From Patescibacteria group bacterium (GTDB lineage Bacteria; Patescibacteriota; Patescibacteriia; 2-12-FULL-60-25): a stretch of 64,000 nt of DNA. The stretch is from assembly GCA_041661725.1 (NCBI GenBank), contig JBAZTX010000003.1, positions 218,794 to 282,793 of the forward strand, given 5' to 3'. This document shows, one piece after another, positions 20,422-58,716 of the stretch (the first letter of the stretch is position 1; every line of letters starts with the position of its first letter). Under the pieces are notes generated by a model that was not told the DNA's origin, did no database searches, and was given only the letters and a program-made list of their open reading frames with translations. A program made the position numbers and the translations under genes.

Positions 20422-20427
20422 CTCACC

Positions 20428-21510: not shown

Positions 21511-21589
21511 GCGTCCAATATTCAGAATTCGATATTCAGCGCGCGATATAGTATAGTAGCGAGCGGATATTCGATATTCGTCATATAAT

Positions 21590-22699
21590 ATGAAACCCGT
21601 AATAAATTCATATCAGCCCTCGATGACCGAGTGGTTTGCGGCCATCGGCGAGGAAGAAGAGTCAAAAGCTTTTCGCGATGAGGATAATCGCAAAGTCGAC
21701 AGGCTGGAGATGTTGTATCAAGAAATCGGTTTGCCTTATGAAAGACCGGAAGAAATGTCAGCCAGGGATTTGGCGGACATGACGCCTCGATTCAAAATTA
21801 TCTTCGATGAGCGCGGTGATGAATTGTGTGCTATTCGTCTTGTCCCAAATAAACCCGAACTTCCAAAATTGCGCCAGCGAGGCGTGTCGATCCGTCAGTG
21901 TTACGAAAATTGGTTTTTAAAACAAGATATAAATCCGGATGATTATACGGCATATATTTGTCCGCATTCAGAGACGCTTAACTGGTCGGCGACAATTATC
22001 GTCGGCGATGAAAAAATTTACGGCGAGATGATCCGCGGTTTGCATAGTCAGTTGACACACGGCGAAACGGACGGAGAACTGCTGCATTTTGAGTATGACT
22101 TTAACGATTGGAAGTGGTCCAAACAAGACGACGAAGCGCAGTCGGTTATCCAAAGAATGATTGAGCTACTGCATGTCGAAGATAGATTGAAACAGCGCGC
22201 GCTTGAAGAAAAATTTAATTGCGAATTTTCTCACGACTATCTGAAAGGTTATTTTGAATCAACCGTTTGGCCGGATAATAAAGTTTATATAATTGATTAC
22301 AATCGTCTTTTGCCAAAATACTTGCCATCCGATTGGTCTGTCCGCGAAACAGCGGAAGCGACGTCGCAAGAAATAACAGGCGTAACGGCGCATCCGGGAA
22401 AAGTCAGCGGACGAGTTAGAATCGTTACGACTGAAAATATCGAAAATATGCAAATCGAAGATGGGGAAATTTTGGTTTGCGACAATACCGACGTTAGATT
22501 TTTGCCGCTCATGAAAAAAGCCGGCGCGATCGTCACCGACCGCGGAGGAATTTTGAGCCACGCGGCCATCATCTCTCGCGAGCTCGGCAGGCCCTGTATT
22601 ATCGGCACTAAAGTTGCGTCGCAAGTTTTGCATAATGGCGAGATGGTGGAGGTTGACGCGAGCAATGGAATTGTTACGATGCTGAAACGCGCTGCGTGA
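21590..22699 (+). CDS. Unrelated N-terminal domain + PEP-utilizer mobile domain protein, paralog B
   Basis: 369 aa. Swivel: GKVSGRVRIV...AGAIVTDRGGILSHAAIISRELGRPCIIGT...MVEVDASNGIV. The N-terminal ~270 aa is dissimilar to paralogs A and C by eye. Confidence 0.8.
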   Translation: MKPVINSYQPSMTEWFAAIGEEEESKAFRDEDNRKVDRLEMLYQEIGLPYERPEEMSARDLADMTPRFKIIFDERGDELCAIRLVPNKPELPKLRQRGVSIRQCYENWFLKQDINPDDYTAYICPHSETLNWSATIIVGDEKIYGEMIRGLHSQLTHGETDGELLHFEYDFNDWKWSKQDDEAQSVIQRMIELLHVEDRLKQRALEEKFNCEFSHDYLKGYFESTVWPDNKVYIIDYNRLLPKYLPSDWSVRETAEATSQEITGVTAHPGKVSGRVRIVTTENIENMQIEDGEILVCDNTDVRFLPLMKKAGAIVTDRGGILSHAAIISRELGRPCIIGTKVASQVLHNGEMVEVDASNGIVTMLKRAA

Positions 22700-22700
22700 T

Positions 22701-23852
22701 ATGGACATGAACCCCGATGAGCTGATAGCTTATTTAAAATCGCAAAAATGGTTTTATGGCGTGCGGATTGATTCCGCATTGCTTTTTTATTCCGCCAAAC
22801 AAGAGGGAATGCGCAAGCATGTTAAAAATATGCACGGCATCGATTTTGCCGAGACGCTTCGTGTCCCTTTAGACGGCAAGCCCGTCCGTGTAATTAATAC
22901 GGAGCAGGCTAAAGCGTTCCATGGCGTCAGTCTGACGAAGATCCAGAAAGATCCGTCAATTTTGTCATTGTGCATCAAAGAGAATGATGAACTTTGGGCG
23001 CGTATTGCCGGAGAATGCGATGATCTGGATCGAGTGATAAATGTCGGGGACGATCAAACCGCGATTCAGATGTTCAAAAAAATATCATCATCTTATGCCG
23101 AGGCCAGTGCGCAATTTATAGTCATTTTTTCTTTGGGTTTAAAGCTTACGGAACTCGGCGCCACAGGGGCGACAAAGCTGATTCTTGAGCAGCATGACAG
23201 TTGGCGTAATCAAATTGCGTTTAAAGAAGAACGGATGGGCGAGCATTGGTATCGTTTTTTTGATCTCATGCGTCAAAAGTATGATTTGAAAAGTTCGGCT
23301 AAGGATTTGATGGGTTGTCTCTCGTTGCCGGAAGTTTTGGCCTGGCTCGACGACAGATCGGTCGATGTTGATAATCTTGTTGCCACGCGTCAAAAGCAAG
23401 ATTTTGTTTATCACGATTCTTGTAAAGAACGTTACGTTGTCGATGATGCCGATCTTGTTTCACGAATCGTTTCGCAACTTAGTTCACAGACACAGGATGT
23501 ATCATCGTCCGCTGAGATCAAAGGCCAGCCGGCATTCGTCGGAGACGATTTTGTGACGGGAGAAGTCTTGGTTATAAAAACTAAAAATGAACTTAATGCG
23601 AAAGCGCCTTTTATGTCCGGTAAGATAATCGTCGCAGAACAAACAACGCCGTATTACATTCAATATCTTAAAAATGTAAAAGCGATTATCACCGACGAAG
23701 GCGGAATTACTTGCCATGCCGCTATTGTCAGCCGAGAGATGTGCATCCCATGCATCATCGGTACGAAAAACGCGACTCAAATTTTGCAAGACGGTGATTT
23801 GGTGGAAGTAGACGTCGGGCGTGGAATTATTAAGGTTATAAAGTCAGTATAA
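22701..23852 (+). CDS. Helical N-terminal domain + PEP-utilizer mobile domain protein, paralog C
   Basis: 383 aa. Swivel: VTGEVLVIK...VKAIITDEGGITCHAAIVSREMCIPCIIGT...LVEVDVGRGII. The start lies 1 nt after the previous stop. Confidence 0.8.
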   Translation: MDMNPDELIAYLKSQKWFYGVRIDSALLFYSAKQEGMRKHVKNMHGIDFAETLRVPLDGKPVRVINTEQAKAFHGVSLTKIQKDPSILSLCIKENDELWARIAGECDDLDRVINVGDDQTAIQMFKKISSSYAEASAQFIVIFSLGLKLTELGATGATKLILEQHDSWRNQIAFKEERMGEHWYRFFDLMRQKYDLKSSAKDLMGCLSLPEVLAWLDDRSVDVDNLVATRQKQDFVYHDSCKERYVVDDADLVSRIVSQLSSQTQDVSSSAEIKGQPAFVGDDFVTGEVLVIKTKNELNAKAPFMSGKIIVAEQTTPYYIQYLKNVKAIITDEGGITCHAAIVSREMCIPCIIGTKNATQILQDGDLVEVDVGRGIIKVIKSV

Positions 23853-46541: not shown

Positions 46542-47021
46542 TCAGAACGCCTGCGCCCTGAGGATGATGTTGTTGGAGACGGCCAAGATCTTGACTGACT
46601 CGAGAGAGATCTCGTTGCCATGAAGATCGACTGCGAAGAAGTTGCAATCTTCTGCTCCGATCTTCTCCATGAACTCGAGATCGTGGCACACGGTCATGCA
46701 GATGCATGCCTGTTTTGCGCCGATCGTCGGCCTGAATCCGACGTAGTACCCGGCACGTGCATGTTCTGCACCGACCCTGCAGAAGACCCCCATCTTGCGG
46801 GTGTACTTCGACTTTGCATTCGTCACCAGACCGTCTGTCGGCGTGGCGCAGGCATCTCCCTTGACCAGCGTGCCGTTGATCGGCCCGCTGAAATTCATCC
46901 AACCGTAGAAGATACGCAGGGCGAGCCATGACCACACGATCTCGCCGACGTTCTTGCGATTGAAGTGGTAGGCCTCGGATCGCGCGCTCAGGAAGGCGAT
47001 GATTGCCATCAGAGTCTTCAT
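46542..47021 (-). CDS. GC-rich, Cys-rich secreted hypothetical protein
   Basis: 159 aa from ATG 47021 (MKTLMAIIAFLSARSEA signal-like), SD aaggaga, 8 Cys. The ORF-track N-terminal extension (to 47243) reads through the promoter and a repeat. Confidence 0.65.
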   Translation of the reverse strand: MKTLMAIIAFLSARSEAYHFNRKNVGEIVWSWLALRIFYGWMNFSGPINGTLVKGDACATPTDGLVTNAKSKYTRKMGVFCRVGAEHARAGYYVGFRPTIGAKQACICMTVCHDLEFMEKIGAEDCNFFAVDLHGNEISLESVKILAVSNNIILRAQAF

Positions 47022-47088
47022 TATCTGTCTCCTTGTAAAGAACGGCAAAGCCGCCTCTTTGTTGACGTAAAAAACGACTATGAGGCTA

Positions 47089-47117
47089 AGTATAGCATAA
47101 AAATGGGGTTTTGTCAA
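47089..47117 (-). promoter_or_regulatory. Near-consensus sigma70 promoter for 46542-47021
   Basis: Minus strand reads TTGACA, 17 nt spacer, TATACT. Confidence 0.7.
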
Positions 47118-47121
47118 CCCC

Positions 47122-47218
47122 CGCCACGCGTACTTAACGTACATAACGTTCATAACGTACCTGACGTCGTCGGACGCTATGCACGCGATGTACGTGATGT
47201 ACGTTAGGTACGTTATGG
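47122..47218. repeat. PE-2 palindromic element, copy 3 (right flank of GC-rich cassette, inverted relative to copy 2)
   Basis: cgcgtacttaacgtacataacgttcataacgtacctgacgt...acgctatgcacgcgatgtacgtgatgtacgttaggtacg. It aligns best with the reverse complement of 46377-46473 (shared gcgtac.taacgtacat, gtacctgacgt, acgctatgcacgc). Confidence 0.75.
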
Positions 47219-47220
47219 TC

Positions 47221-48330
47221 CTATTGTTTGATGAGCGGTACAACTATTCTGTATCTTTGCGGACCTAGATTTGTAGATCTGACGGCCTCGGCCACAACTG
47301 CTGGTACAAGATATGAGTAATCGTAAGTTTGAGTTTTGGAAAGTCTGACAAAGGCAAAAGAAATATCTGTGATTTGTTTATAGCCAGGCAGGTCACCTGC
47401 AAGTCCGCCGCGTTCCAATAGGCTTTGCAGGGTCGCGGTATCAATGGCAGCGTAATCAGATCTTTGCGGTTCGTCGGGGAAAGTCATCCAGCCCGAAACC
47501 ATTTCGCCGGTTTGTGAATTAACCAAAATTTGTCCGCCCAGTTCCGGCTGCCCGTCTTTATCCACGATATTCCAGCCGTCGAGAAAGCGTTCAAAAGAAA
47601 CGGGCAAGATGCTTGGGTAGCTTGCAACGCATCCTGTCGTCGGTACTTCTGGCAAAGCGGGCGGAGCTTTGTCAAACATTTGGTCGGAAGTTTGCAGCGC
47701 GACGATTTGATTGCGAACGTCTGTCGGCGCGCAGCCTTGCAGTCTGTCGAGCTTGTCGAGCCAGACGCTCCATGCCGGGGCGATTTGAATATTTTTTAAC
47801 AACTGTTCGTTGATGCCGCGTAGTTTTAAAAATACGTCGACTTTATCTATCAGTTGCTCGTTGCCCATCCATGAATTGACGATGGGATTTTTGGGTTTTG
47901 TCGTGTCATTCGTAAAAGTCAGTTTATGATCAAGCGAATAATATTTCCAAACAGCGCTTTCTTTGTTGGTCCACGTAAGTGCGTAGCCAAGATTGCGAGT
48001 GTCATCGCCGACAAGACCGGCTGGCAAGCCGATGGCCTGGGTCAAGTTTTGAAATTCAGTCAGATTCAAATCGCCGGCGGGTAAACGCACAACAGTCACA
48101 GTCGGCTGTATTGTCGGCAGATCTGTATCGATGTTTATCACGTCGGTGCTTTTGCCTGTCGGAAAATTAATTTTTGGCAAGATTCCAAAACCGCCGTTTT
48201 GCGAAGGAGCGCCTCCGATTTCCGCAGGGCCGAGCGTTTCCGCAATCTGCGGGACTGTAATCGGTTGATTGCAGCCGGCAGCCATCAAGGGCACGACAAT
48301 CAGCAGAAGGAACGAATGTTTTGGTCTCAT
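47221..48330 (-). CDS. Hypothetical lipoprotein
   Basis: MRPKHSFLLLIVVPLMAAGC lipobox, 369 aa. I recognise no catalytic motif. Confidence 0.7.
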   Translation of the reverse strand: MRPKHSFLLLIVVPLMAAGCNQPITVPQIAETLGPAEIGGAPSQNGGFGILPKINFPTGKSTDVINIDTDLPTIQPTVTVVRLPAGDLNLTEFQNLTQAIGLPAGLVGDDTRNLGYALTWTNKESAVWKYYSLDHKLTFTNDTTKPKNPIVNSWMGNEQLIDKVDVFLKLRGINEQLLKNIQIAPAWSVWLDKLDRLQGCAPTDVRNQIVALQTSDQMFDKAPPALPEVPTTGCVASYPSILPVSFERFLDGWNIVDKDGQPELGGQILVNSQTGEMVSGWMTFPDEPQRSDYAAIDTATLQSLLERGGLAGDLPGYKQITDISFAFVRLSKTQTYDYSYLVPAVVAEAVRSTNLGPQRYRIVVPLIKQ

Positions 48331-48454
48331 ACGCCGTATATAATACCTCTTTTTATGACTTCTTGACACCCGTACCGGTTTGCTATATATTCCTAGCCAG
48401 CCACTAGGCTTTTGTCCGGTGCTACATGCTCCATGTTATGTGTTACATGACCAT

Positions 48455-48862
48455 ATGAACAGTTTATTTCGCGTTTCCGCGCGCAATCATGCGGGATTGA
48501 TCCTTATGACGATGATTGCCGAAGCCAAAAGCTCCGGTGATTTTGTGAGCTTAAAAGATGTTGCCGGGCGCATGAGTCTTTCACAAGGCTTTTTGGAAGA
48601 GATCGCCATGGCGCTGAAAAAGTCCGGTTTGATCAAGGGCCGCAAAGGACCGGGCGGCGGATACAGATTGGCCAAGCCTGCATCAAAAATTACGGCTGAA
48701 CAGATTTTAACTGCACTCGAAGGTCCGATTGCGCTTGTTGAATGCAACGGCGGAAAGTGTCCCGTCGCTTCGCATTGCTCTTCCAAGTCGCTTTGGAACT
48801 TTTTGCAAAAAGACGTTTTAGCTTCATTAAAAAAGACGACACTCGCTAAGTTGGTAAATTAA
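48455..48862 (+). CDS. Rrf2-family transcriptional regulator (IscR-like)
   Basis: wHTH SLKDVAGRMSLSQGFLEEIAMALKKSGLIKGRKGPGGGYRL and Cys ligands VECNGGKCPVASHC. First ATG used; the upstream extension is made of gttacatg-type repeat words. Confidence 0.85.
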   Translation: MNSLFRVSARNHAGLILMTMIAEAKSSGDFVSLKDVAGRMSLSQGFLEEIAMALKKSGLIKGRKGPGGGYRLAKPASKITAEQILTALEGPIALVECNGGKCPVASHCSSKSLWNFLQKDVLASLKKTTLAKLVN

Positions 48863-48863
48863 T

Positions 48864-50231
48864 ATGTCTGAATCCCCATTGTCATTTCGACCGAAGCGTA
48901 AAAGCGAAGTGGAGAAATCTCATCGCTCAAAACCTTCAACAGCTCATCGAGTTGGTCATGGTTTGAGATCGGTTTATTTGGATAACGCCGCAGCCTCGCC
49001 GCTTGATGCAAAAGTTTTAAAAGCGATGTTGCCTTATTTTAGTTCCATTGCTGCTAACCCGTCATCTTTACATTCCGCGGGACAAGCTGCTAACAAAGCC
49101 GTGACACAGGCGCGAAAGTCAATTGCTGAAATCATAAATGGCCATGCCGATGAGATCATTTTTACTTCGGGGGGAACCGAGTCGGATAATTTGGCGATTA
49201 ACGGTGTCATTGCGGAATGTCGTACAACGTACAACGTACAACGTACCAACGTCGAAAGCGGGTTGCCGCATGTCGTCACGACCGCGATCGAGCACCATGC
49301 GATATTGGAGTTGCTGACGCGTTTACAAAAGAAGGGCGAGATTGATTTGACTATCGTCAAACCGCAAAAGAATGGCGTCGTGAAAGTCGACGACGTGATG
49401 TCGGCCATAAATGACAGAACCGTCTTGGTCAGTGTTATGTATGCCAACAACGAGATCGGCACGATCCAACCAATCGGCGATATCGGACGGGCGATACTCA
49501 AATATCGAAGCTCGAAGCTCGAATCTCGAAACATCGAACGTGGTACGTCGTACGATGTACGTGGCACGTTTCCTTTGTTTCATTCCGACGCCTGTCAGGC
49601 CGCGGGTTATCTTGATTTGAATGTTGAAAAATTGCATGTTGATTTGCTGACTTTAAACGGCGGAAAAATTTACGGACCAAAAGGCATCGGATTTTTGTTT
49701 GTCCGCCGCGGAGTAAAACTTGCACCGACTGTTATCGGCGGAGGTCAGGAAAGAGGTTTAAGATCCGGCACGGAAAACGTGCCGGGAATCGTCGGCATGG
49801 CAAAAGCATTGGAGCTGGCGCAAAAAGATCGCGATAAAGAATCAAAACGTCTTGCGCAGCTTCGCGACAGATTGATAAAAGGACTTTTACGCATTCCAAA
49901 GTCGCGCTTAAACGGCGATCCTGTCGAGCGTTTGCCTAATAACGTTAACATCTCGTTTATGGACATCGAGGGCGAGGCAGCGATGTTGTACTTGGATGCA
50001 AAAGGCATCTCGTGTTCAACCGGTTCGGCCTGTGCATCAACTTCGCTCGATCCATCGCATGTCATTCTCGCACTCGGCATGTCGTACGAAGCTGCACACG
50101 GTTCACTTCGTTTTTCTCTCGGTCACGACACGACAAAGTCGGACGTTGACTACGTAATAAAAGTAATGCCCGGCATTGTCGAGATGCTGCGCAAGATTAG
50201 TCCGGTAACATTGGACATGTCGCATTTCTAA
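48864..50231 (+). CDS. iscS: Cysteine desulfurase (NifS/IscS class) with three repeat-derived in-frame segments
   Basis: VYLDNAA, FTSGGTESDNLAI, HSDACQAAG and active-site loop STGSACAS. The true start is uncertain because the first ~30 codons derive from a gtcatttcgaccgaagcg repeat. Confidence 0.9.
   Translation: MSESPLSFRPKRKSEVEKSHRSKPSTAHRVGHGLRSVYLDNAAASPLDAKVLKAMLPYFSSIAANPSSLHSAGQAANKAVTQARKSIAEIINGHADEIIFTSGGTESDNLAINGVIAECRTTYNVQRTNVESGLPHVVTTAIEHHAILELLTRLQKKGEIDLTIVKPQKNGVVKVDDVMSAINDRTVLVSVMYANNEIGTIQPIGDIGRAILKYRSSKLESRNIERGTSYDVRGTFPLFHSDACQAAGYLDLNVEKLHVDLLTLNGGKIYGPKGIGFLFVRRGVKLAPTVIGGGQERGLRSGTENVPGIVGMAKALELAQKDRDKESKRLAQLRDRLIKGLLRIPKSRLNGDPVERLPNNVNISFMDIEGEAAMLYLDAKGISCSTGSACASTSLDPSHVILALGMSYEAAHGSLRFSLGHDTTKSDVDYVIKVMPGIVEMLRKISPVTLDMSHF
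49221..49255. repeat. cgtacaa stutter block in frame in iscS
   Basis: cgtacaacgtacaacgtacaacgtaccaacgtcg encodes RTTYNVQRTNV, placed between the conserved NLAI and HV.T..IEH blocks. Confidence 0.8.
49503..49568. repeat. cgaagctcgaa + gtacg stutter block in frame in iscS
   Basis: atatcgaagctcgaagctcgaatctcgaaacatcgaacgtggtacgtcgtacgatgtacgtggcacg encodes YRSSKLESRNIERGTSYDVRGT, just before FHSDACQ. Confidence 0.8.
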
Positions 50232-50245
50232 CTTAATGACTTGTC

Positions 50246-50362
50246 TGTCATTCCGAGCGAAGTGCCCAAACTCATGGCACGTAGTCGAGGAATCCCTTGT
50301 TAAACAGTTGGATTGTTATGTAAGGGATCCCTCCACTTCGCTACGCTACGGTCGGGATGACA
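50246..50362. mobile_element. MITE-like imperfect palindrome (gtcattccgagcgaag family)
   Basis: tgtcattccgagcgaagtg...gaggaatccctt / aagggatccctccacttcgctacgctacggtcgggatgaca, intergenic between iscS and nifU. Confidence 0.7.
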
Positions 50363-50372
50363 AATAGAACTT

Positions 50373-51029
50373 ATGACCAAACCTACCACAAACTCACCAG
50401 ACATAACTCCGCGCAAAAACTCGGACGGCGGTTTTTATTCGGATGTCGTTAAAGATCATTTTTTTCATCCCAAGAATTTCATGGAAGATGAATCCGCTTA
50501 TAAGGCCGACGGACAAGGCGTTGTCGGATCTCCGGCCTGTGGCGATGTTATGCGCGTTTGGATTAAAGTCGATCCAAAAACGGAACGCGTTACTGATTGC
50601 CGTTGGAAAACTTTTGGATGCGCTTCTGCGATCGCCGCGACTTCCATGATGTCGACGATGGTTATTGAAAACAACGGCATGACTCTCGATCAGGCGCGTC
50701 AAATCCGTCCGCAAGATATTATGGAGCGCCTCGGCGGTTTGCCTGCACGCAAAATCCATTGTTCCGTTTTGGGAGACAAAGCTCTGCGCTCCGCGATCAA
50801 CGATTATTATCGTAAGTCGGGACAAATCGACAAGATCGAAATCGAGCAGGGCCGCGTCATCGACAAGGTTTTGAAAATCACAGATCACGACATCGAGGAA
50901 GCCGTGCTCGAAGGCGCAGATACATTGGACAAGATCCAATCCAAAACAAAAGTCGGCACCGGCGATCCTTCCTGCATTCCGGAAGTCGAGCAGCTGATGA
51001 AGTTTTATAAGGAGAAGTATTTCGGATAA
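50373..51029 (+). CDS. nifU: Fe-S cluster scaffold, IscU/NifU N-domain + BFD-like middle domain
   Basis: GSPACGDVMRVWIKV, WKTFGCASAIAATS, HCSVLGDKAL and the C-terminal ITDHDIEEAVLEGADTLDKIQSKTKVGTG. Confidence 0.85.
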   Translation: MTKPTTNSPDITPRKNSDGGFYSDVVKDHFFHPKNFMEDESAYKADGQGVVGSPACGDVMRVWIKVDPKTERVTDCRWKTFGCASAIAATSMMSTMVIENNGMTLDQARQIRPQDIMERLGGLPARKIHCSVLGDKALRSAINDYYRKSGQIDKIEIEQGRVIDKVLKITDHDIEEAVLEGADTLDKIQSKTKVGTGDPSCIPEVEQLMKFYKEKYFG

Positions 51030-51082
51030 ATTTAATTGTCATTGCGAGGGAAGTCGGAGCGACGTGGCAATCTTCAAATGGA

Positions 51083-51107
51083 AACAGCTGCCGAGAGCAG
51101 CTGTTTT
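51083..51107. terminator. Hairpin terminator
   Basis: aacagctgc-cgaga-gcagctgtt followed by ttgttt. Confidence 0.65.
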
Positions 51108-51113
51108 GTTTAT

Positions 51114-51193
51114 AACAAAATAGCTCCGAACCAACTATTGCTAATTGACTCGGAGCTATTCCTATCTATTGAGACCCGATAGGAAGGGTGAGA
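51114..51193. repeat. 80 nt perfect direct repeat, copy 1 (two-hairpin element)
   Basis: aacaaaatagctccgaaccaactattgctaattgactcggagctattcctatctattgagacccgataggaagggtgaga is identical to 51808-51887 (offset 694 nt). It contains an 11 bp stem (aatagctccga/tcggagctatt) and an 8 bp stem (ttcctatc/gataggaa). Weaker similarity extends ~15 nt on both sides. Confidence 0.9.
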
Positions 51194-51223
51194 GAGTTGG
51201 AGGCGGACTACGAGTGAGGCGCT

Positions 51224-51721
51224 TCAGCCTAAGGAGACCTCGATCAAGTCGGACTGCCATCTTTTGTCGTCGCCTTCCGGGCTTGCAAGCTCCTTCCAAA
51301 GCTCCTTGACCTCGGCGAGGAGCGCATCGACTCCGGCCTCATCGGCCTTGCGCCACGGCGACCTTTGCTTCCTGTCTGTACAGTACTGCAGGTTGTCGTG
51401 ACCCTCGATTCGGACCTCGAACCAGAGGCGCACTGCCCAGCGTTCGTCCATGTGGAACACCTTGCTTGACGTGTCCACGACCTTCCAGCAGCGACCGGGG
51501 CCGACCTTCTCGATCTGGATTGCAAACTGCGTGGAGTCCACGTGCTCGCTGAATCCGGTGAGGCAGATCCTAACCTCGGAGTTGGGGAGATCGTTCTCGA
51601 GCCTCGCGACAAGCTTCGCTATCGCTGCGTACGATTCCGGCCGTGTACGGCCTGGGCTGAAGGTTGCGAAGATCTGTTTCAGGGCGTCCAGTCCTACTTC
51701 GATGAGCGGTCTCTCTTCCAT
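51224..51721 (-). CDS. Hypothetical protein (GC-rich cassette flanked by the 80 nt repeats)
   Basis: 165 aa from the second ATG, which follows SD gaaggagg. I recognise no motif. Confidence 0.65.
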   Translation of the reverse strand: MEERPLIEVGLDALKQIFATFSPGRTRPESYAAIAKLVARLENDLPNSEVRICLTGFSEHVDSTQFAIQIEKVGPGRCWKVVDTSSKVFHMDERWAVRLWFEVRIEGHDNLQYCTDRKQRSPWRKADEAGVDALLAEVKELWKELASPEGDDKRWQSDLIEVSLG

Positions 51722-51749
51722 TGCTACCTCCTTCATCGTTGGTACGGGT

Positions 51750-51778
51750 TATTTAGCACCTTCAGTACTGACGGTCAA
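51750..51778 (-). promoter_or_regulatory. Sigma70-type promoter for 51224-51721
   Basis: Minus strand reads TTGACC, 17 nt spacer, TAAATA. Confidence 0.55.
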
Positions 51779-51807
51779 GCCAAAAAAACGACAGCTGTTA
51801 TATAAAA

Positions 51808-51887
51808 AACAAAATAGCTCCGAACCAACTATTGCTAATTGACTCGGAGCTATTCCTATCTATTGAGACCCGATAGGAAGGGTGAGA
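51808..51887. repeat. 80 nt perfect direct repeat, copy 2
   Basis: Identical to 51114-51193. It lies ~45 nt downstream of the stop of 51937-52185. Confidence 0.9.
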
Positions 51888-51936
51888 AAGGTGGGTGGCT
51901 AGTCGTCCTCGTAGTCGTAGTACTCCTCGGTTTGCC

Positions 51937-52185
51937 CTAGCGGTTACGTGCGTGAGTTCTCGCCCGCTCGAAGTTGAAGTCGTCGAACAATTGGAAGACA
52001 ACGATGAGCATCCAGAAGCAAATGCTCAGAGTTGCCATTCCGACAGTCTCGAGCTTCAGAGTCTCCACGTCGCTGATTCCTCGCGCGGTGATCATGAGGA
52101 TCCAGCTCATCGCGAACAATGGTACTGTGATGATGGTTGCGAAGAGCGCCGCGTCTTTTACGCACGATAGCAAGATCTTGAACAT
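51937..52185 (-). CDS. Small two-TM membrane protein, hypothetical (GC-rich)
   Basis: 82 aa, ATG start, SD gggaga, two hydrophobic helices. Confidence 0.55.
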   Translation of the reverse strand: MFKILLSCVKDAALFATIITVPLFAMSWILMITARGISDVETLKLETVGMATLSICFWMLIVVFQLFDDFNFERARTHARNR

Positions 52186-52209
52186 GAGATTCTCCCTCGC
52201 GTTTTATGT

Positions 52210-52467
52210 TCAAAGCCAGCGGTTGTCGAGGTTGTGATGGAAGTCGCATTCCTCGGCATAGCGCTGGCGGAGTCGCCTGGGTGAGAAAATGAATTCGCCG
52301 ACCAAGGCCGCACGGCAGTCTTCGGGTGTGATAGGCCACAACCTGCGCAACATACGCAGATCCTCGCGCACTGTCTCCATTACACGGGGTGCTGCAGCCC
52401 AGAGCCCGACGATGTAGTAGAAACCAATGATGTTCAGGATCGTGCGAATCGCTCTTGTCATAGCCAT
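52210..52467 (-). CDS. Small membrane-anchored hypothetical protein (GC-rich)
   Basis: 85 aa from MAMTRAIRTILNIIGFYYIVGLWAA, SD aaggag. Confidence 0.55.
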   Translation of the reverse strand: MAMTRAIRTILNIIGFYYIVGLWAAAPRVMETVREDLRMLRRLWPITPEDCRAALVGEFIFSPRRLRQRYAEECDFHHNLDNRWL

Positions 52468-52578
52468 CTCCTTGTGGTGGAAGTTGCGAAACCGGTTACT
52501 GCCCCCGAATGAGACAAGCAAATTATCTCCTTTGGGGGAAGTTGCTCGCCGACTGGGTGCCGGCGAGCGAGGGTGGGA

Positions 52579-52965
52579 CTAATGATTGCAGAGTTTTGAG
52601 GTGAACCCGGCCAGCGTGCGTGTGATCGCGCCGAGCTTGAGGAGGCGAGCAAACTGTCCGTTGAATCGCGAAAGATGCACCCACTCGTCCTCTGTCCAGC
52701 GGTGCCAACTCCATGGAAATACCTGGAACCAGACACGTTCGAACGAGGACTTCTGATCATCGGGGAATCCGATGGGCCAGCCGTCGGCACCGAAGAACTC
52801 TGTCCGAGGGATCTCGCATTCCGTGACGCTCGCGCTGGGAGAATTCTCGGCGGTGAAATCCACTTTGAACACCGCTCCCGACGGCCAGGAATCAACATTC
52901 TCCGCTTCATCACGGAACGTGGGGCGCGGATCGTCTTCAGTGCCGAGAAAGTTGCTGCGGTTCAT
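52579..52965 (-). CDS. Hypothetical Trp-rich soluble protein (GC-rich)
   Basis: 128 aa from the first ATG. The ORF-track start at 52998 is TTG, so the start is uncertain. Confidence 0.5.
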   Translation of the reverse strand: MNRSNFLGTEDDPRPTFRDEAENVDSWPSGAVFKVDFTAENSPSASVTECEIPRTEFFGADGWPIGFPDDQKSSFERVWFQVFPWSWHRWTEDEWVHLSRFNGQFARLLKLGAITRTLAGFTSKLCNH

Positions 52966-53160
52966 GATCTCTCTGTCGTCTTGAGGGAACAGCGACAAAT
53001 ATCCGTCGCGCTTTAGCCGTTGATGCGGCTCCTCAAGACAGGTACTGTTTTATCAGTTCAATGTGCACCTCTTTGATTCCGGGGGTTGGATGATTTCCGG
53101 AATGCGTGACAATGATTTGGGTACAAATCAACATTACGCATTTCATAAATCTGATGCAAT

Positions 53161-53189
53161 AATTTAGCATAAATTAGCCATTTTGTCAA
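53161..53189 (-). promoter_or_regulatory. Sigma70-type promoter for the 52965-51937 gene string
   Basis: Minus strand reads TTGACA, 17 nt spacer, TAAATT. It would give a ~190 nt leader. Confidence 0.55.
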
Positions 53190-53230
53190 GGATAAGAAGT
53201 TCTGTTTTTGGTGTTTTTGGCTAACTAATG

Positions 53231-53436
53231 ACTAGAAACTGACAACTGTAAACTGGAAAGAGCGAATTAAGTTGTTAAGCACTGAGATTTCTCTCCCGCC
53301 TCCAACTGATACATGTCTGCGGGATCCCGAAGGAAGCGGGACACTTCGCTTTTACGCTACGGTCGAAATGACAGGAGGGGAGGAACTTTCCGGTAGAAAT
53401 GACGGAGGGTACTCTTTCCAGTTTACAGTTTCTAGT
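53231..53436. mobile_element. PE-1 element whose arms are separated by ~150 nt of other repeat-family sequence (nested insertion)
   Basis: Left arm actagaaactgacaactgtaaactggaaagagcg (53231-53264) and right arm ctctttccagtttacagtttctagt (53412-53436). The interior carries gggatcccgaaggaagcggg...cgctacggtcgaaatgaca, related to 50246-50362. Confidence 0.7.
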
Positions 53437-53451
53437 TTATCCTGTTGCAGT

Positions 53452-53673
53452 ATGAAAAAGATTACTAAAATAGTCGTTGATCGTGAGCTCTGCATTGGCG
53501 CAGCCCCGTGCGTAGTCGTGGCGCCGAAAGTTTTTCAGTTGGATAATGAAAATAAAGCAATCGTCGTAGATGCGCACGGAGCGGACGATGATACGATTTT
53601 GCTGGCAGCTCAATCTTGTCCGGTGCAGGCAATCAGTTTGTTTGACGAAGAGGGGAATCAGATTTATCCGTAA
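53452..53673 (+). CDS. Small ferredoxin (single-cluster type)
   Basis: 73 aa. VVDRELCIGAAPCVVVAPKVF...AAQSCPVQAI is typical of Fer4_13/15-type ferredoxins. First ATG after the repeat. Confidence 0.75.
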   Translation: MKKITKIVVDRELCIGAAPCVVVAPKVFQLDNENKAIVVDAHGADDDTILLAAQSCPVQAISLFDEEGNQIYP

Positions 53674-53777
53674 AATCCCACCCACAGGATCTCTCCGAAC
53701 GAAAGTAAATAAAAAAGAGCCCCACTTAGCCGAGGCTTCGTGGGGCAAGTAAGCTAGAGCGGAGCGTCCGCTCTTTT

Positions 53778-55136
53778 TTATTTCTTGCGCGCTGGAGGCG
53801 GATCGACGAAGTCTTGAATAGCTTGGTCGTTCACGCTGTCGCGCAATCCGCTGAAAATGTCGTCATTACTTCCTTCGGCGACATGCTCAGCGTGGGTGAG
53901 CGGACGAACATTTCGGATTTCGTCCGGAATGCCGATCGAAGATGTTTGGGTCCCATCGAAGGCAGGATCTCTTTCGACGCCCGTAGGAACATTGATCCCT
54001 CGCGGCCGTGAAGAAGTCTCGGGTCGTGAACCGAATTCCGCTGTGCGCCGAGGGTCGAAATGTGATTGAGCTACTGGAAGCGGCGGCGGTGTTATTCGTC
54101 TCGCCGGAGCCGGCCTAGGTGCGCGCGCCGGCGGCGGGATGACGACCGGTGCGGAAGGTTCTTCTGGCTCGAGTCCGATCGACATAGTCTCTCTTGGTTC
54201 TGCCAGGCTTACGCTCGCCGGCGATTCGTCATCCGCAATAACTTCGAGTTCGCCGGTAGAAACGTCATCCCAGTCGATTGAGTCGTCTGCTTGTGCTGCT
54301 GACGGCTCGACGGAATCCAGGAATCGGAGAGACAGTGCCTCGATATCGTCTTCATCAGCCGGCGGCGGTTCCTCACCTAAGAGCAAGTGCAGTGCCGCGT
54401 CGCGGATGAACATCTTGGGATTGTCGCGACTGATCATGTCCAGTCCGCGCTGAATACGATTCGCGTGCAGCTCGAGCTCGCTCTGGCGTTGTCGAGCTTC
54501 TTCAATGACGCGCTGCGCCGCTTCCGCTGCCTGCGTCGCTTTTTCGGCAAGGGTCTTGTAGCGCTCCAAGGCGTTGTCACGCAGCGCCTTCCAGTCAGCA
54601 TGCTCTTCGTCCATCCTGATAGTCCGACGGCGCATAGAATCAACGAGCTGCTTGAACTTGCCGTTCTCTTGGATCTGCAATTCGAGCTCTTCCTGGATAC
54701 TCTCGAGAAGTGCGAGATCGCCGCGGTTGGCAGCTGGATTTTTAGGCAGGCAGCCGGTAGCTACGATGCCTTGCAGAACCAAAGACTGCTGCGAGACGGA
54801 CAGGACGACTTCCTTGAGCATGAGCATACTCGCCAGGATGTCGGGTACGGGAATCGCCTCGATTACCGCGCGTTCACTGACGACGCGATAGCGGATTCGG
54901 TATCCCATGTTTTGCGTCGATGCTGGGTGAAAACGGAAGTAGTCACCCTCTTCCAGGCGGTCGACGGTTTTGAACTGGTTTGCTGACTCCAACTCAATAT
55001 CCACGGAGCCCGCCTTCACCTTAAAGACGCAACCCGGATATTTGTCGACGTCGATCAGCTTGTCCCTGGCGCGGACAAGAGTTGATCTCGAAGCAGACTG
55101 TGAAGATACGAAACGGTTGAGCTTGTCGCTTGCCAT
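53778..55136 (-). CDS. GC-rich hypothetical protein: N-terminal beta-barrel-like domain, coiled coil, long Pro-rich acidic tail
   Basis: 452 aa from ATG 55136 (SD gaggag). The ORF-track TTG start at 55274 lies inside the -35 box. GDYFRF within the N-domain is faintly cNMP-binding/cupin-like. Confidence 0.65.
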   Translation of the reverse strand: MASDKLNRFVSSQSASRSTLVRARDKLIDVDKYPGCVFKVKAGSVDIELESANQFKTVDRLEEGDYFRFHPASTQNMGYRIRYRVVSERAVIEAIPVPDILASMLMLKEVVLSVSQQSLVLQGIVATGCLPKNPAANRGDLALLESIQEELELQIQENGKFKQLVDSMRRRTIRMDEEHADWKALRDNALERYKTLAEKATQAAEAAQRVIEEARQRQSELELHANRIQRGLDMISRDNPKMFIRDAALHLLLGEEPPPADEDDIEALSLRFLDSVEPSAAQADDSIDWDDVSTGELEVIADDESPASVSLAEPRETMSIGLEPEEPSAPVVIPPPARAPRPAPARRITPPPLPVAQSHFDPRRTAEFGSRPETSSRPRGINVPTGVERDPAFDGTQTSSIGIPDEIRNVRPLTHAEHVAEGSNDDIFSGLRDSVNDQAIQDFVDPPPARKK

Positions 55137-55246
55137 TAGACTCTCCTCGTAGATCCCCGCAGCATTATGCGCAGGGGAAAGAACGATTGTTTTTGTTTTA
55201 AATCTTTCATCCGGCGCTACTCGCAAAGAGCTTAGCCGAACGTGTG

Positions 55247-55274
55247 ATTGTACATTTTTTTGGGACTTTGTCAA
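55247..55274 (-). promoter_or_regulatory. Near-consensus sigma70 promoter for 53778-55136
   Basis: Minus strand reads TTGACA, 16 nt spacer, TACAAT, giving a ~110 nt leader. Confidence 0.7.
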
Positions 55275-55282
55275 CCCTATTT

Positions 55283-55353
55283 AACTAGAAACTGGAAAGA
55301 GCGATTCGGTTTAACACATAACTCTTTCCAGTTTCTAGTTTCCAGTTTTCAGT
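55283..55353. repeat. PE-1 palindromic element, full copy
   Basis: aactagaaactggaaagagcgattcggtttaacacataactctttccagtttctagtttccagttttcag. Its right arm encodes the last codons (ILKTGN) and the TAG stop of the methyltransferase gene. Confidence 0.85.
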
Positions 55354-56534
55354 ATCCTTACGTTCCTACGCAGATGCTGTCCGGTTCTTTCGTAATACAT
55401 GTCCATTTGCCTTAGATTGGCGGGCAAATCCTCCAAAGCGAATCCCAGTGACGCAAAGTCGATGTCCGAATCCGTTGCAATGATTTGCGAGCCGACTTTG
55501 TAAGACGGAAAAATGGCAACAATGCGTCCATCTTTTTTCATCAATGGTTTAAGCGCTGCCAGAGCATCTTTCCAAAGTTGAGTGATTTGAGATGCGTTTT
55601 TTTGAATCTCGCTCAACGATTCGCGGCCTCTCAAGGCAGGTCCGAGCCAGCCTTCCGTAACAACCGCATCAATCGATTTCGGCGAAAGATAGTGCCCGAC
55701 TTCTTTTACATCAGAAGTAAAAACTTTAAAACGAGTTTCATCGTCTTGCGATAAAATATTTTTATTCAAAAGCCATTCTAAGTTTCCGGAAGTGTCATCC
55801 GTTTGTCGTTCGTCGATGTCGCTGCCGATTATTTTTGTTTCGCTTGTCGCCAAAGCGGCTTCCATTAAAATAGTGCCTGATCCGCAAAACGGATCCAACA
55901 AAGTTCCGCCGTCCGGCGTTTGTGCAAGATTGACCATCATGCGCGCAAGTTTTGGCGGCAACATTCCGTTGATATCATCGCGGCATGGGCGGCCGTAATC
56001 GCGCAAACTCCACGCGTCAGCATCTTGTACCTGCGTTGTGCGTCCCAAAAAAGTTTTGCCTTTGTCGAGCATCAAACAAAAATCTGCGTTTGGTTGTTCG
56101 GTCAGATGGCATTTGGCCACCGCGGCAGGGGAGAGCGGCTGCCCGCCTTCGCCGCTGACCCAACGGATCTTCCATCCCAATTCTTTTAATGCACGTTTAA
56201 TGTGCAATGGATATTTTTCAAAAATCTTTTTTTCTTTTCCATTTCCTCCAAAGGACGTCCAACCGAATTCAAGACCTGTCATCTCTTGTTTGCCGGAGGC
56301 GAGCTGTGCAATATCTGCAGCTTTCAAATCCGTGCCTTTTGACTCCAAAATCACGTCGCCGAGCTTAATGACTCCGCCAAGTTGGCTCATTAGAACATCA
56401 GCCTGCCAGTCGTTCATCTCCACGATGCAGGTGTTTGGAGTTTGGGAGACTATTTTCGCCTTTGGTTTAAAAGCCAAAAATTCCGCTAAAGATAGCCGTG
56501 GATGGTTGCCGAAGACAAGAAAGTGGAGAGCCAT
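55335..56534 (-). CDS. THUMP-like + class I SAM-dependent RNA (guanine-N2-type, Trm11/RlmL-like) methyltransferase
   Basis: N-terminal FLVFGNHPRLSLAEF, SAM motif I LLDPFCGSGTILMEAAL, motif IV-like DAVVTEGWLGP. Start taken at MALHF; the upstream extension consists of cgtccc repeat words. Confidence 0.65.
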   Translation of the reverse strand: MALHFLVFGNHPRLSLAEFLAFKPKAKIVSQTPNTCIVEMNDWQADVLMSQLGGVIKLGDVILESKGTDLKAADIAQLASGKQEMTGLEFGWTSFGGNGKEKKIFEKYPLHIKRALKELGWKIRWVSGEGGQPLSPAAVAKCHLTEQPNADFCLMLDKGKTFLGRTTQVQDADAWSLRDYGRPCRDDINGMLPPKLARMMVNLAQTPDGGTLLDPFCGSGTILMEAALATSETKIIGSDIDERQTDDTSGNLEWLLNKNILSQDDETRFKVFTSDVKEVGHYLSPKSIDAVVTEGWLGPALRGRESLSEIQKNASQITQLWKDALAALKPLMKKDGRIVAIFPSYKVGSQIIATDSDIDFASLGFALEDLPANLRQMDMYYERTGQHLRRNVRILKTGN

Positions 56535-56712
56535 AATAAACGCCAATATGATACAGCGTCCCGCGTCCCGCGTCCATCGTCCCACGTTAGCGGTCAAACC
56601 TTGACTTTTTGAGTTATTTATGGTGGTCTATGCGTATCTCGTATATTCTATACGAAGGTCTTCGACAACCTAAAAGACGGCTATGGCGGCCGTCAAACCA
56701 GGGAGAAAGACA

Positions 56713-58716
56713 ATGTCTCACCACGTACTGTCCGTACTGTATTCGATCGTTGGACGGAGGGGAGCGTTGTCGCTGGTAACCCTCCTCGTCACTCTTCTCG
56801 TCGCGCTGACTGCGCAGACCGCGCGTGCCGACGACAACCCGTACGCTTCTGAAGCCTGCGTGACGACGATCAACCCCGACAAGGTGATTGGCGACAAGCA
56901 CTTCAGCGTCATCACCATCAACAAAAGATTGGCGCACGAGAGTCCTAAGACGTGCAGTCTTCGGACCGCGCATCAGATACACCCGATCGTCGTCGACGGC
57001 AAGCAGCTTGATGTCGAGTCCTGGTTGCGCAGCGTGTACGCCGCCAATCAGAGCGAGCATCCGACGGTTTTGTGCCGTTGCGTGTCGCGCTCCGGAAAGG
57101 TGTCGCAGTGCTCAACCGGAACAGATTCGTTCTGCTCCGATGGCACAGTAGCCAACATCATGGGCGTACCATCCAACGGGTGGAAGGCTTATATTCTCAT
57201 TCCGAGCACGTTAATGCTTACTCAAGAGCAGAGGAACATCGCTGCCGCCAAGGCCGCATGTGCCGAGGCAAGCGGTGCGAGCGCCATTAATGCGTGTCGC
57301 GAAGCAGGCCTTCTTCTGCAGACTCCCGGTCCCGCGGTCCCTTATGTCAGCGATGCAGAGATCTTCAAGAAGGAGATGGAAGCTTCGAAGGCCAAGGTCG
57401 CGGAGATGACGACCAGGCTCGCGCAGATGGATGAACAACTGGTCGAAACCCAGAAGGCGCTTGCCGCTGCGCGCTCTGATGCGAACTCATGGTTGTTGGG
57501 AGTCGTAATAGAGGCGATTGCGTACGCCGTTCTTAACTTGGTTCTCGCCTGGTACATCTGGACCAAGCGAAAGCTCGCAAAAGAGCTCAAGAAAGAACGC
57601 GCGGCAAACGAGGAACTCAACCGTGCAAACCTGGAGTTGCATGCAGGGCTGGCTAAGGCCGGCGACTTCTTGAAACAACAAGGCCTCGAACATCGCAAGG
57701 CCATGTCGCGGCTTGAGAACGAAGCGCGTGATGAAATCAGGCGCCTCAAGGATGAAAACAAAAAGCTCGATCAAGAGCTGAACAAGACCAAGAATGTCTT
57801 GCGCAACGTCAATATCGACAAGGCGACGAAAGAGGTTGAGGAAATCCGACAGGAAATTGCTAGACTCAACCTGCTCCGCACCGGCGACGTCGAGGTCTTG
57901 AGTCAGCGCTTGAGTCAGATTCCCGGCGAAGCCGCCGCTCTAACTCAGCCGTCCGACAGACGTGCTGACAAGATGAATAAGGTCATTGAATTCTACAGCG
58001 GTGAGCTTGGTGATCTCATCCAGGGCTGTGCGCCGGACGGTTACAGTCTCGTGCCGCCGGCTATGGACGACATGGATCAGGCGAAGCGTTTGGTTGCCAA
58101 GATCGCGCGCCTTGTCGCCGACAAGGAAATTGAACTCGAGGCGCTGCGCCAAGCGGCTCCTCTCGCAGTTCGGCCTTTGAACGACAACGCCGCTAGTGCG
58201 GCTGACTCTGCATCTTCCGCGGGCGCGGCTGATTCAGCCCCCGCAGGAAGTCCTAAGGACATCGACGACGCGACCATGATTCGCGCCGTGGACAAAGTTG
58301 TTGACCTCTTGTCCCACTGGTTCGAAGCTCTGCGCCGCGTTGCAGAACTTGAAACGCGCATCAAGACGTCGCAAGACGTTGTTCGCGCTCTCAAAGATCC
58401 GTTCAATATACCGGCAGTGCAGTCGGGGCTCGATGCGCATCGCATCGAGTTGGGAGACGCTCGCAAAGAGGAGAATGAGCTAAGTAATAAGCTCAACTCG
58501 CTGGGAGCGAATCGACTCACGCTCCGCGCGGCGGAAGTCTCCAAGGATGACTACGTTGATCTTGTGAAGGTAAAGTCGATCATTCTCCAAGAACTGATTG
58601 ACGTCTTGAACCATGCGGCTCCGGCCGCAAGAGTTGGCGCTGCGCCTACTGCGTATGCGCATACTATTCCGCCGCCAAACGGCACAGACGATCCAAATGG
58701 TGGACACTCCACCTGA
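56713..58716 (+). CDS. GC-rich membrane protein: Cys-rich extracytoplasmic domain, one TM, long cytoplasmic coiled coil
   Basis: Signal/anchor LVTLLVTLLVALTAQTARA, 12+ Cys in the first 230 aa, TM WLLGVVIEAIAYAVLNLVLAWYIW, then heptad-rich K/E/L sequence. SD gggaga. Confidence 0.7.
   Translation: MSHHVLSVLYSIVGRRGALSLVTLLVTLLVALTAQTARADDNPYASEACVTTINPDKVIGDKHFSVITINKRLAHESPKTCSLRTAHQIHPIVVDGKQLDVESWLRSVYAANQSEHPTVLCRCVSRSGKVSQCSTGTDSFCSDGTVANIMGVPSNGWKAYILIPSTLMLTQEQRNIAAAKAACAEASGASAINACREAGLLLQTPGPAVPYVSDAEIFKKEMEASKAKVAEMTTRLAQMDEQLVETQKALAAARSDANSWLLGVVIEAIAYAVLNLVLAWYIWTKRKLAKELKKERAANEELNRANLELHAGLAKAGDFLKQQGLEHRKAMSRLENEARDEIRRLKDENKKLDQELNKTKNVLRNVNIDKATKEVEEIRQEIARLNLLRTGDVEVLSQRLSQIPGEAAALTQPSDRRADKMNKVIEFYSGELGDLIQGCAPDGYSLVPPAMDDMDQAKRLVAKIARLVADKEIELEALRQAAPLAVRPLNDNAASAADSASSAGAADSAPAGSPKDIDDATMIRAVDKVVDLLSHWFEALRRVAELETRIKTSQDVVRALKDPFNIPAVQSGLDAHRIELGDARKEENELSNKLNSLGANRLTLRAAEVSKDDYVDLVKVKSIILQELIDVLNHAAPAARVGAAPTAYAHTIPPPNGTDDPNGGHST

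Follow-up and report, generated by a model that had tools for sequence, protein, structure and literature searches.

In T4-type phages, promoter-early stem-loops (PeSL) serve as mobile regulatory cassettes (Arbiol et al. 2010, PMC2839356; Comeau et al. 2014, PMC4122927). Where phage RB49 has an ORFan between two terminator/promoter modules, phi1 has one module, and mini-circles have been detected (PMC2839356, PMC4122927). Here, a comparable arrangement is described in a 64,000-nt stretch of a Patescibacteria group bacterium (GenBank assembly GCA_041661725.1, contig JBAZTX010000003.1), which is called the window and whose own numbering is used throughout. Within the window, an 80-nt non-coding sequence occurs twice as a perfect direct repeat on either side of a small gene, open reading frame (ORF) A, and both copies reside in an island inserted between nifU and a ferredoxin gene (fdx). 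The repeated element was named R. The best-supported reading, drawn by analogy with the phage cassettes, is that the organisation represents modular shuffling of regulatory cassettes, a known principle that would here operate in the chromosome of a candidate phyla radiation (CPR) bacterium and not in a phage.

The likeness to the PeSL system extends to several features. A composite intergenic module of ~100 bp, consisting of a stem-loop terminator and a strong sigma-70-type promoter (here predicted from the sequence), is repeated beside small orphan genes in hyperplastic regions; relatives differ in having two modules or one (the window versus locus L023, and locus L011 versus locus L015, all described below); homologous recombination between modules is the proposed mechanism, and each gene obtains expression signals of its own. 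Arrays of ORF A paralogues at two further loci, L005 and L008, are likewise built from units separated by repeated terminator-plus-promoter modules. The host, however, is a Patescibacteria chromosome with a single hotspot between nifU and fdx, flanked by ribosomal, Fe–S, and other housekeeping genes, and relatives in phages or viral contigs were found neither with the hairpin 1 pattern of R in viral contigs nor in the ORF A searches. A viral contig (L004) retrieved by a stem-only pattern scan proved to contain one chance palindrome. R also comprises two hairpins and a separate promoter, whereas the PeSL stem-loop is embedded in the promoter; it is present in one or two copies per genome, as opposed to about 50, and has no sequence homology to PeSL. 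Mini-circles were detected in the phages, whereas the arrangement described here is known from consensus contigs only.

Phage morons are autonomous promoter–gene–terminator units with a deviant base composition. The 694-bp ORF A unit resembles them in carrying its own promoter, Shine–Dalgarno (SD) sequence, and terminator, and in having a GC content ~10 points above that of its surroundings, but it is not part of a prophage, and the repeated module on either side of it is a feature not generally found in morons. The minimal mobile elements known from Neisseria are defined, in the definition given in PMC3787668, by variable content between fixed flanking genes and by the lack of mobility genes. 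Measured against that definition, the present locus is similar in that gene content varies between the fixed nifU and fdx flanks, no mobility genes were found in the ORFs scanned, and the backbone is mosaic; it differs in that conserved structured non-coding modules inside the island (R, a second element named S, and a promoter) also mark the breakpoints, and in that the host is an uncultivated CPR bacterium.

The R module and its two copies

The repeat, the unit that it brackets, and the adjoining terminator comprise the following features.

51098..51200 (exact core 51114-51193), minus strand: R copy A, the 3' module of ORF A and the final island element ahead of the convergent nifU terminator; 107 bits with covariance model R1
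51160-51184, 51120-51159, and 51114-51119, minus strand: hairpin 1, hairpin 2, and U-tract of R copy A
51792..51894 (exact core 51808-51887), minus strand: R copy B, the 3' module of ORF B, directly upstream of the ORF A promoter; 108.6 bits with covariance model R1, and found in the terminator scan
51854-51878, 51814-51853, and 51802-51813, minus strand: hairpin 1, hairpin 2, and U-tract (UUUUGUUUUUU) of R copy B
51727..51778, minus strand: putative promoter and SD sequence of ORF A, with -35 TTGACC (51778-51773), a 17-nt spacer, an extended -10 TGCTAAATA (51758-51750), and SD GAAGGAGG (51734-51727)
51224..51721, minus strand: ORF A, 165 aa from ATG 51721 in a frame that is open to 51736; orphan family
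51085..51110, plus strand: nifU terminator, CAGCTGC-CGAGA-GCAGCTG followed by a T-run

A sequence-only reading of the window had reported an 80-nt identity at an offset of 694 nt, surrounded by weaker similarity, with each copy lying downstream of a minus-strand stop codon. All of this holds on a base-by-base check. Positions 51114-51193 and 51808-51887 are identical, the identity stops at exactly these ends, and the weaker similarity corresponds to a 103-nt repeat (51098-51200 and 51792-51894, 93% identity) delimited by a repeat finder; R copy A begins 30 nt past the ORF A stop (TGA, 51224-51226), and R copy B begins 49 nt past the ORF B stop (TAG, 51937-51939). The 42-nt hairpin core occurs twice in the 64-kb window, both times in the island, where 100 shuffles gave an expectation of 0. 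The layout is identical in the assemblies ENA ERZ27249449 (100%) and JGI 3300014208 (99.9%), and is therefore not an assembly artefact.

The mismatches of the 103-nt repeat are distributed unevenly: all seven lie in the 23 outer positions, and the inner 80 nt have none (P ~1e-5 under a uniform spread, by our own calculation from the alignment). Either active homogenisation or tight constraint must therefore act on the 80-nt core, the flanks of which have drifted. Perfect identity had earlier been taken as a sign of recent duplication; with the flanks diverged, it points instead to homogenisation or constraint of the core, and not to a very young duplication of 103 nt. The 8-nt 3' arm of the nifU terminator (CAGCTGTT) lies inside the weaker outer repeat and recurs beside copy B at ~51792-51799, whereas it is absent beside R in L023 and L011, and the duplication in the window therefore arose at this locus. 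Despite this in situ origin, the flanks have diverged and the core has not.

On the minus strand, which is the gene-sense strand, R consists of the pyrimidine-rich leader CUUUCUCACCCUUCC, a 7-bp hairpin with an 11-nt loop, an 18-bp hairpin, and the tract UUUUGUU. The two hairpins and the terminal tract had been recognised from the sequence alone, as had 11 Watson–Crick pairs of the second hairpin; the stems, however, measure 7 and 18 bp and not 8 and 11, since hairpin 2 continues into a 7-pair extension that contains three G-U pairs and is capped by a GCAA loop. The fold has a z-score of -3.7, and, owing to three G-U pairs in the long stem, the RNA of the sense strand is more stably folded than that of the antisense strand (-32.2 versus -26.5 kcal/mol for an 84-mer of R, and -23.6 versus -16.3 kcal/mol for hairpin 2 alone). 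The arrangement agrees with that of an intrinsic terminator, in which the 18-bp stem is followed by UUUUGUU(UUUU) at 30-49 nt past the stop codons, and a consensus terminator scan lists R copy B, although the stem is unusually long and AT-rich for an intrinsic terminator. A predicted terminator role of R is well supported by these features, from which we infer termination activity.

Comparison of five distinct copies of R indicates that base pairing is preserved, with pairing kept in 95% of pair cells as compared with at most 42% when the partners are slid. Seven of the 25 pairs are altered on both sides, as in hairpin 1, where CCUAUC/GAUAGG is replaced by CCCAUC/GAUGGG. The covariance model R1, which was built from these five copies, recovers them together with a copy that had not been used (L023:11648-11730; 29.9 bits, E = 6e-5), and gave no further sense-strand match in the window or the other loci. 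In this diverged copy, which is without a U-tract, the hairpin 1 loop and most of hairpin 2 are altered, and both hairpins are kept through many compensatory changes. The structure of R thus appears to be under selection, the small sample being supportive rather than conclusive.

Several parts of R resemble S, the second two-hairpin module of the island. Both elements begin alike (TAG-YCC-CACC), and in the lineage of the metagenome-assembled genome (MAG) SO_2017_GW1_242, the apex of hairpin 2 of R is the S apex motif CAGATAAC...GTTGTCTG. The stop-proximal leader CUUUCUCACCCUUCC is also conserved across lineages, more than pairing or termination requires. The conserved loop and leader, the shared start, and the apex motif would leave room for an RNA function of R or, with lower probability, for a dedicated recombination system. 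A search of Rfam 15 gave no relevant match at E <= 1 in 48-56 kb, and two sub-threshold miRNA hits elsewhere are attributed to chance; ARAGORN detected no tRNA or tmRNA, and Tandem Repeats Finder reported nothing relevant.

As a separate observation, palindromic inserts of 50-80 nt are found in the SO_2017_GW1_242 lineage exactly in the apical loop (CAGATAAC / GTTGTCTG) of hairpin 2, in both R and S. They lie at L011:967-1022, L015:6793-6877, and L015:7552-7663, and are unlike one another in sequence. It would seem that tiny mobile palindromes insert preferentially at the hairpin apex.

The ORF A unit and the nifU–fdx site in relatives

The complete unit of promoter, SD sequence, and ORF that had been proposed between the two R copies is real. 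Its putative promoter, TTGACC-17-TAAATA with TG upstream, starts 23 nt after the U-tract of R copy B; it failed a strict hexamer scan, the last base of its -10 being A. It is also conserved ahead of the ORF A homologues of L011 and L008. ATG 51721 is the likely start of ORF A, because all homologues start there. The gene has a GC content of 59% (48.6% for the window), and its dN/dS of 0.23-0.40 across five homologues identifies it as a real gene under purifying selection. The family is very rare, with four other clusters among 5.8 billion proteins; a profile search of 1.84 billion representatives returned four genuine clusters, and a fifth match (P0139) was set aside as a spurious tandem-repeat protein. 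No match to ORF A was found in Pfam, PHROG, or PADLOC, and its AlphaFold2 model is poor (pLDDT 61), with nothing below E = 0.36 in a Foldseek search against the PDB. A phage origin was rejected, given the absence of viral-contig relatives, of tblastn matches in 50,697 phage records, and of PHROG matches, and a defence-system origin was rejected on the lack of a PADLOC match.

The homologues of ORF A in the GC-rich loci L005 (67% GC) and L008 (61%) have as neighbours distant paralogues (139-165 aa) and a gene of 208-218 aa, in arrays of four small genes between glycosyltransferase genes (L008:9410-11887 and L005:6572-8885). Every junction in these arrays consists of a near-identical GC-rich hairpin, T6, a TTGAC(C/A) promoter, and an SD sequence. 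The ORF A promoter of the window and of L011 matches the L008 junction promoter over the -35 to -10 interval, but the two terminators differ. On this sequence comparison, ORF A thus appears to have been imported together with its promoter from a GC-rich relative, with the local AT-rich R serving as terminator. This makes it doubtful that R travels with the cassettes, as had been suggested: R has a GC content of 42%, AT-rich like the host, while ORF A and its promoter look imported and the source arrays use a different terminator. The proportion of synonymous sites that differ (pS) between the ORF A genes of the window and L011 is 0.32, half of the 0.67 observed for nifU between the same lineages, which argues that the unit moved between the lineages after their split.

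The remainder of the island in the window comprises the following features.

51030..53451: full extent of the inserted island, which separates the nifU stop from the ferredoxin start
51937..52185, minus strand: ORF B, 82 aa, predicted small membrane protein without a family match; R copy B lies 3' of it
52210..52467, minus strand: ORF C, 85 aa, hydrophobic N-terminus, no family match
52468..52578, minus strand: S element, a conserved two-hairpin intergenic module (hairpin 1 52544-52568, hairpin 2 52502-52538)
52579..52965, minus strand: ORF D, 128 aa from ATG 52965 (139 aa from TTG 52998), no family match
53161..53189, minus strand: island promoter, a promoter-like site with TTGACA, 17 nt, TAAATT, and TG upstream

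The island is ~2.4 kb long, GC-rich (55.5% GC in the ORF block), and made up of orphan genes, no family match having been found for those of its cassette ORFs that were scanned. It is flanked by Rrf2-iscS-nifU on one side and by the ferredoxin gene, a methyltransferase gene, and ribosomal protein genes on the other. S, which lies between ORF D and ORF C, is without a U-tract and runs into the SD sequence of ORF C; it also occurs in L015, and in L023, which has two copies of its hairpin-2/leader part. R is absent from the ORF D/C junction, which is occupied by S, and from the ORF C/B junction, which spans 24 nt and contains no element. The promoter-like site at 53189-53161, already picked out from the sequence alone, was confirmed; the 298-nt segment that contains it (53154-53451) is 97% identical in the MAG STC_25, where it drives different ORFs.

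Named MAGs whose nifU is 78-94% identical to that of the window are annotated "Patescibacteria group bacterium". At two related loci (L018 and L021), the site is empty and fdx follows nifU after 34-41 nt. L019/L020 carry an unrelated island with genes of 82 and 878 aa, and L022 carries another unrelated island of six genes, including those for an M23 peptidase and a methyltransferase; neither R nor S is present in these islands. The window, STC_25 (L014/L023), and SO_2017_GW1_242 (L015, which is the JGI contig L012) have R-bearing islands with non-homologous ORFs. By this comparison, the island is an insertion that splits an otherwise contiguous Fe–S gene cluster, and the site is a hotspot.

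When public genome and metagenome collections (including JGI metagenomes) were scanned with the hairpin 1 pattern, R was found at this locus only, with one match per genome in STC_25 and in SO_2017_GW1_242. The backbone of STC_25 is 87-93% identical to that of the window and its R core is identical, while nifU of SO_2017_GW1_242 is 78% identical to its counterpart in the window. R forms the nifU-proximal end of the island in both MAGs, where it follows an ORF of 82-92 aa (STC_25) or 191-222 aa (SO_2017_GW1_242). Across the three lineages, R follows five unrelated ORFs, namely ORF A, ORF B, and three others in the relatives, in keeping with the earlier proposal of a conserved structured 3' module. 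Copies of R beyond the window therefore do exist, and cassette content does vary among related strains, as that proposal had also anticipated.

The island of L023 (1,639 nt) consists, in order, of the promoter region, a copy of the S hairpin-2 leader, ORF1, the diverged R-like element, ORF2, a full S, ORF3, and R, and tblastn searches with ORFs A-D of the window gave no match in L023 or the other related loci. An ORF A gene that is 73% identical is present in L011, where the order is a 57-aa gene, R, the same promoter, ORF A, and R, and where the flanks match those of L015. In L015, a 51-aa gene is followed by S, a 191-222-aa gene, and R; its sequence parts from that of L011 directly behind the upstream stop codon, and the two become alike again from the first base of R onward. 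In two lineages (window/STC_25 and L011/L015), the ORF A unit thus lies between two R copies in one member, and the sister strain has a single R beside another gene.

Alignment of positions 47000-58000 of the window with L023 reveals an identity mosaic, with values of 0.70-0.995 per 200 nt and blocks above 98% at 55400-55900 and 56400-57100, which suggests frequent homologous exchange between the window and STC_25 lineages. A view of the 100% identity of the R core and the 97% identity of the fdx-side segment with STC_25 as special conservation was dropped in light of this mosaic.

Readings of the repeated module

We consider it fairly probable that R is a portable bipartite 3' terminator/insulator module, the repetition of which gives homology for the gain and loss of cassettes. 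In this reading, which draws on the structure, position, and covariation of R, on the variability of the locus, and on the presence or absence of the ORF A unit in relatives, the conserved short hairpin, the long hairpin, and the U-tract would act as an intrinsic terminator and 3' stabiliser, so that copy B would close the ORF D-C-B transcript and copy A would close that of ORF A. R would also shield the island genes from two neighbours, the ORF A promoter and the convergent nifU operon. Copy B and the strong promoter that follows it would form a terminator-plus-promoter junction, which would make ORF A an autonomous, moron-like unit. With R on both sides, 80-100 nt of homology would be available for ordinary homologous recombination to delete the 694-bp promoter–ORF–terminator unit, possibly as a circle, and an excised unit could re-insert at another R; the same homology could allow R-adjacent content to be swapped during allelic exchange between strains. 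That the core is perfect and its flanks diverged may be due to recombination or gene conversion involving the two copies, or to a core that is tightly constrained. We infer this recombination role, including circle formation, from the arrangement of the sequence. The earlier idea of a cassette-like terminator module is largely right in these terms, and its integron-like version is wrong.

Several observations weigh against this reading. No polymorphism was seen between the two strain-level copies of this genome (the ENA and JGI assemblies), and an island contains at most two copies of R while its other junctions use S or nothing, so that R is not a universal cassette boundary. A simple R-by-R deletion that would convert the window into L023, or L011 into L015, was rejected, because the gene upstream of the single R also differs, and extra replacement events are therefore needed. 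The identity of the R core with STC_25 is not exceptional in a mosaic backbone. The covariation was drawn from three lineages and one diverged copy, with d-type loop inserts trimmed by hand; L011 is a contig of 1,086 nt, the lineage of which was assigned from ~110 nt of flanks identical to L015; and the hairpin 1 loop (GGGUYUCAAUA) is conserved across lineages beyond what a plain terminator needs.

The simplest alternative, that R is the ordinary terminator of the last gene of the island and was copied once, locally, to a position upstream of ORF A without any role in gene flux, appears unlikely. The CAGCTGTT arm beside both copies, and its absence beside R in L023 and L011, do indicate an in situ origin, and the uniform sequence of the two assemblies and the AT-rich, host-like composition of R are also as expected from a local event. 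ORF A and ORF B, however, are not homologous, and a simple tandem gene duplication was rejected for that reason. The same order of R, promoter, ORF A, and R recurs, with the CAGCTG piece missing, in a lineage that differs from the window at 67% of the synonymous sites of nifU; the sister strains of both lineages have a single R beside different genes; and the core is perfectly identical though its flanks have diverged. We regard it as quite improbable that the repetition merely reflects a shared RNA tail, with R acting as a functional RNA, either a small RNA derived from the 3' untranslated region or a stability element bound by a protein or RNase. Small RNAs usually have a hairpin on the 5' side and a terminator hairpin after it, the structure of R is strand-specific, S follows the same two-hairpin plan without a U-tract, and the hairpin 1 loop and leader CUUUCUCACCCUUCC are conserved beyond the needs of pairing; on the other hand, neither a target or partner nor an Rfam family was identified, and the diverged L023 copy alters the hairpin 1 loop and most of hairpin 2 with pairing kept. 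An RNA function of this kind is compatible with the terminator/insulator module and does not exclude it.

Sites of integron cassettes offer a further comparison. The attC site consists of an R'' (RYYYAAC) and R' (GTTRRRY) core pair that bounds a single imperfect hairpin, with a length of 57-141 nt, and clusters of attC sites lacking integron-integrases (CALINs) also lack the integrase, so that a missing integrase alone is not decisive. The island resembles an integron in that its small ORFs form a string on one strand, a structured repeat comes after an ORF, cassette content varies, and a shared promoter lies upstream. It differs in that R has neither attC cores nor a single bulged hairpin, no IntI was found among the ORFs examined, not every ORF has an R, and the structure of R favours RNA, whereas attC folds as bottom-strand DNA. 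A regular-expression search for RYYYAAC...GTTRRRY on both strands of six R copies and of the whole island found none. Likewise, no recombinase or transposase domain was present in 34 window ORFs (the four island ORFs and 30 of at least 180 aa) or in precomputed Pfam annotations of neighbours, a scope that leaves aside overlapping-frame ORFs and the rest of the genome. An integron cassette with attC sites was rejected on the missing cores, the two hairpins in place of a single bulged one, the RNA-biased fold, the promoter-bearing cassette, and the junctions without an element, and with it fell the integron-like, site-specific cassette array that the sequence-only reading had allowed for. More broadly, R and S could be sites for a site-specific recombinase encoded in trans, which would make the island an integron-like or pdif-like platform. 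Structured conserved elements at ORF boundaries, content that varies at a fixed chromosomal site, and direct repeats that flank the ORF A unit in the manner of attL and attR would all fit, but the two hairpins are independent, with G-U pairs that favour RNA of one strand, ORF A has its own promoter, R is missing at other junctions and limited to one or two copies per genome, and neither attC cores, nor a recombinase domain, nor an Rfam match came to light in the searches described; we therefore consider such a platform most improbable. A related and very improbable possibility is that R, its diverged form, and S are recognition elements of an undescribed integron-like mode of gene capture, in which a trans-encoded enzyme would act on structured RNA or single-stranded DNA sites; this would account for the conserved hairpin 1 loop, for the stop-proximal leader that R and S have in common, and for the abrupt ends of the perfectly identical 80 nt.

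Repetitive extragenic palindromic (REP) sequences and bacterial interspersed mosaic elements (BIMEs) share with R the form of intergenic hairpins positioned 3' of genes, with the capacity to stabilise transcripts or end them and to act as substrates for recombination. R differs in not being dispersed: two MAGs have one copy each and the window has two, and the locus is the same in every case. A dispersed repeat (REP, BIME, or miniature inverted-repeat transposable element) was rejected, since only two copies exist in the 64 kb, both of them in the island, and only the same loci were found in the collections.

Further features of the window and significance

Short palindromic repeat families are found around the island and nearby genes, at 48878-48911, 50244-50262, 51035-51053, 53231-53262, 53342-53373, 53412-53438, and 55283-55353. 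They include TGTCATTTCGACCGAAGCGTAAAAGCGAAGTG and AACTAGAAACTGGAAAGAG hairpins, and the stretch from R copy A to the nifU stop contains one copy. The neighbouring IscS gene (48864-50231) has lineage-specific in-frame insertions at two surface-loop positions, one at 49180-49260 ('ECRTTYNVQRTNVES') and the other at 49520-49575 ('LESRNIERGTSYDVRGT'), the second of which coincides with the short repeat TCGAACGTGGTACGTCGTACGA. IscS of STC_25 (L023 8567-9859) has a different insert at the first site (VIPISNSVIPAKAGIQNPMDPRIRKDDKRE), and more distant relatives have none. The inserts look like small palindromic repeats that were inserted in frame into an essential gene.

Elsewhere in the window, positions 19486-23852 contain a gene for the N-terminal nucleotide-binding domain alone of pyruvate, phosphate dikinase, followed by three tandem paralogues of 360-383 aa. 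Each paralogue ends in a mobile domain of phosphoenolpyruvate (PEP)-utilizers, so that the arrangement is that of a split and triplicated PEP-utilising enzyme. Two large GC-rich ORFs, at 53778-55274 on the minus strand (498 aa) and 56683-58716 on the plus strand (677 aa), have no Pfam match; in the 498-aa protein, the long C-terminal half is rich in proline and acidic residues.

CPR bacteria, or Patescibacteria, have tiny genomes, and the acquisition and turnover of their accessory genes are little understood. The locus described here provides a defined hotspot, at which the Rrf2-iscS-nifU-fdx cluster is split by an island and orphan genes are exchanged between lineages, while structured non-coding modules (promoter, leader hairpin, and terminator) are kept and reused. 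The covariance model R1 offers a testable RNA motif, and the locus a marker of strain variation in uncultivated bacteria. If recombination between modules drives the exchange, the shuffling of regulatory cassettes known from T4-like phages would also operate in cellular genomes, and would give these bacteria a recombinase-free route by which foreign GC-rich ORFs arrive with, or at once receive, working expression signals.

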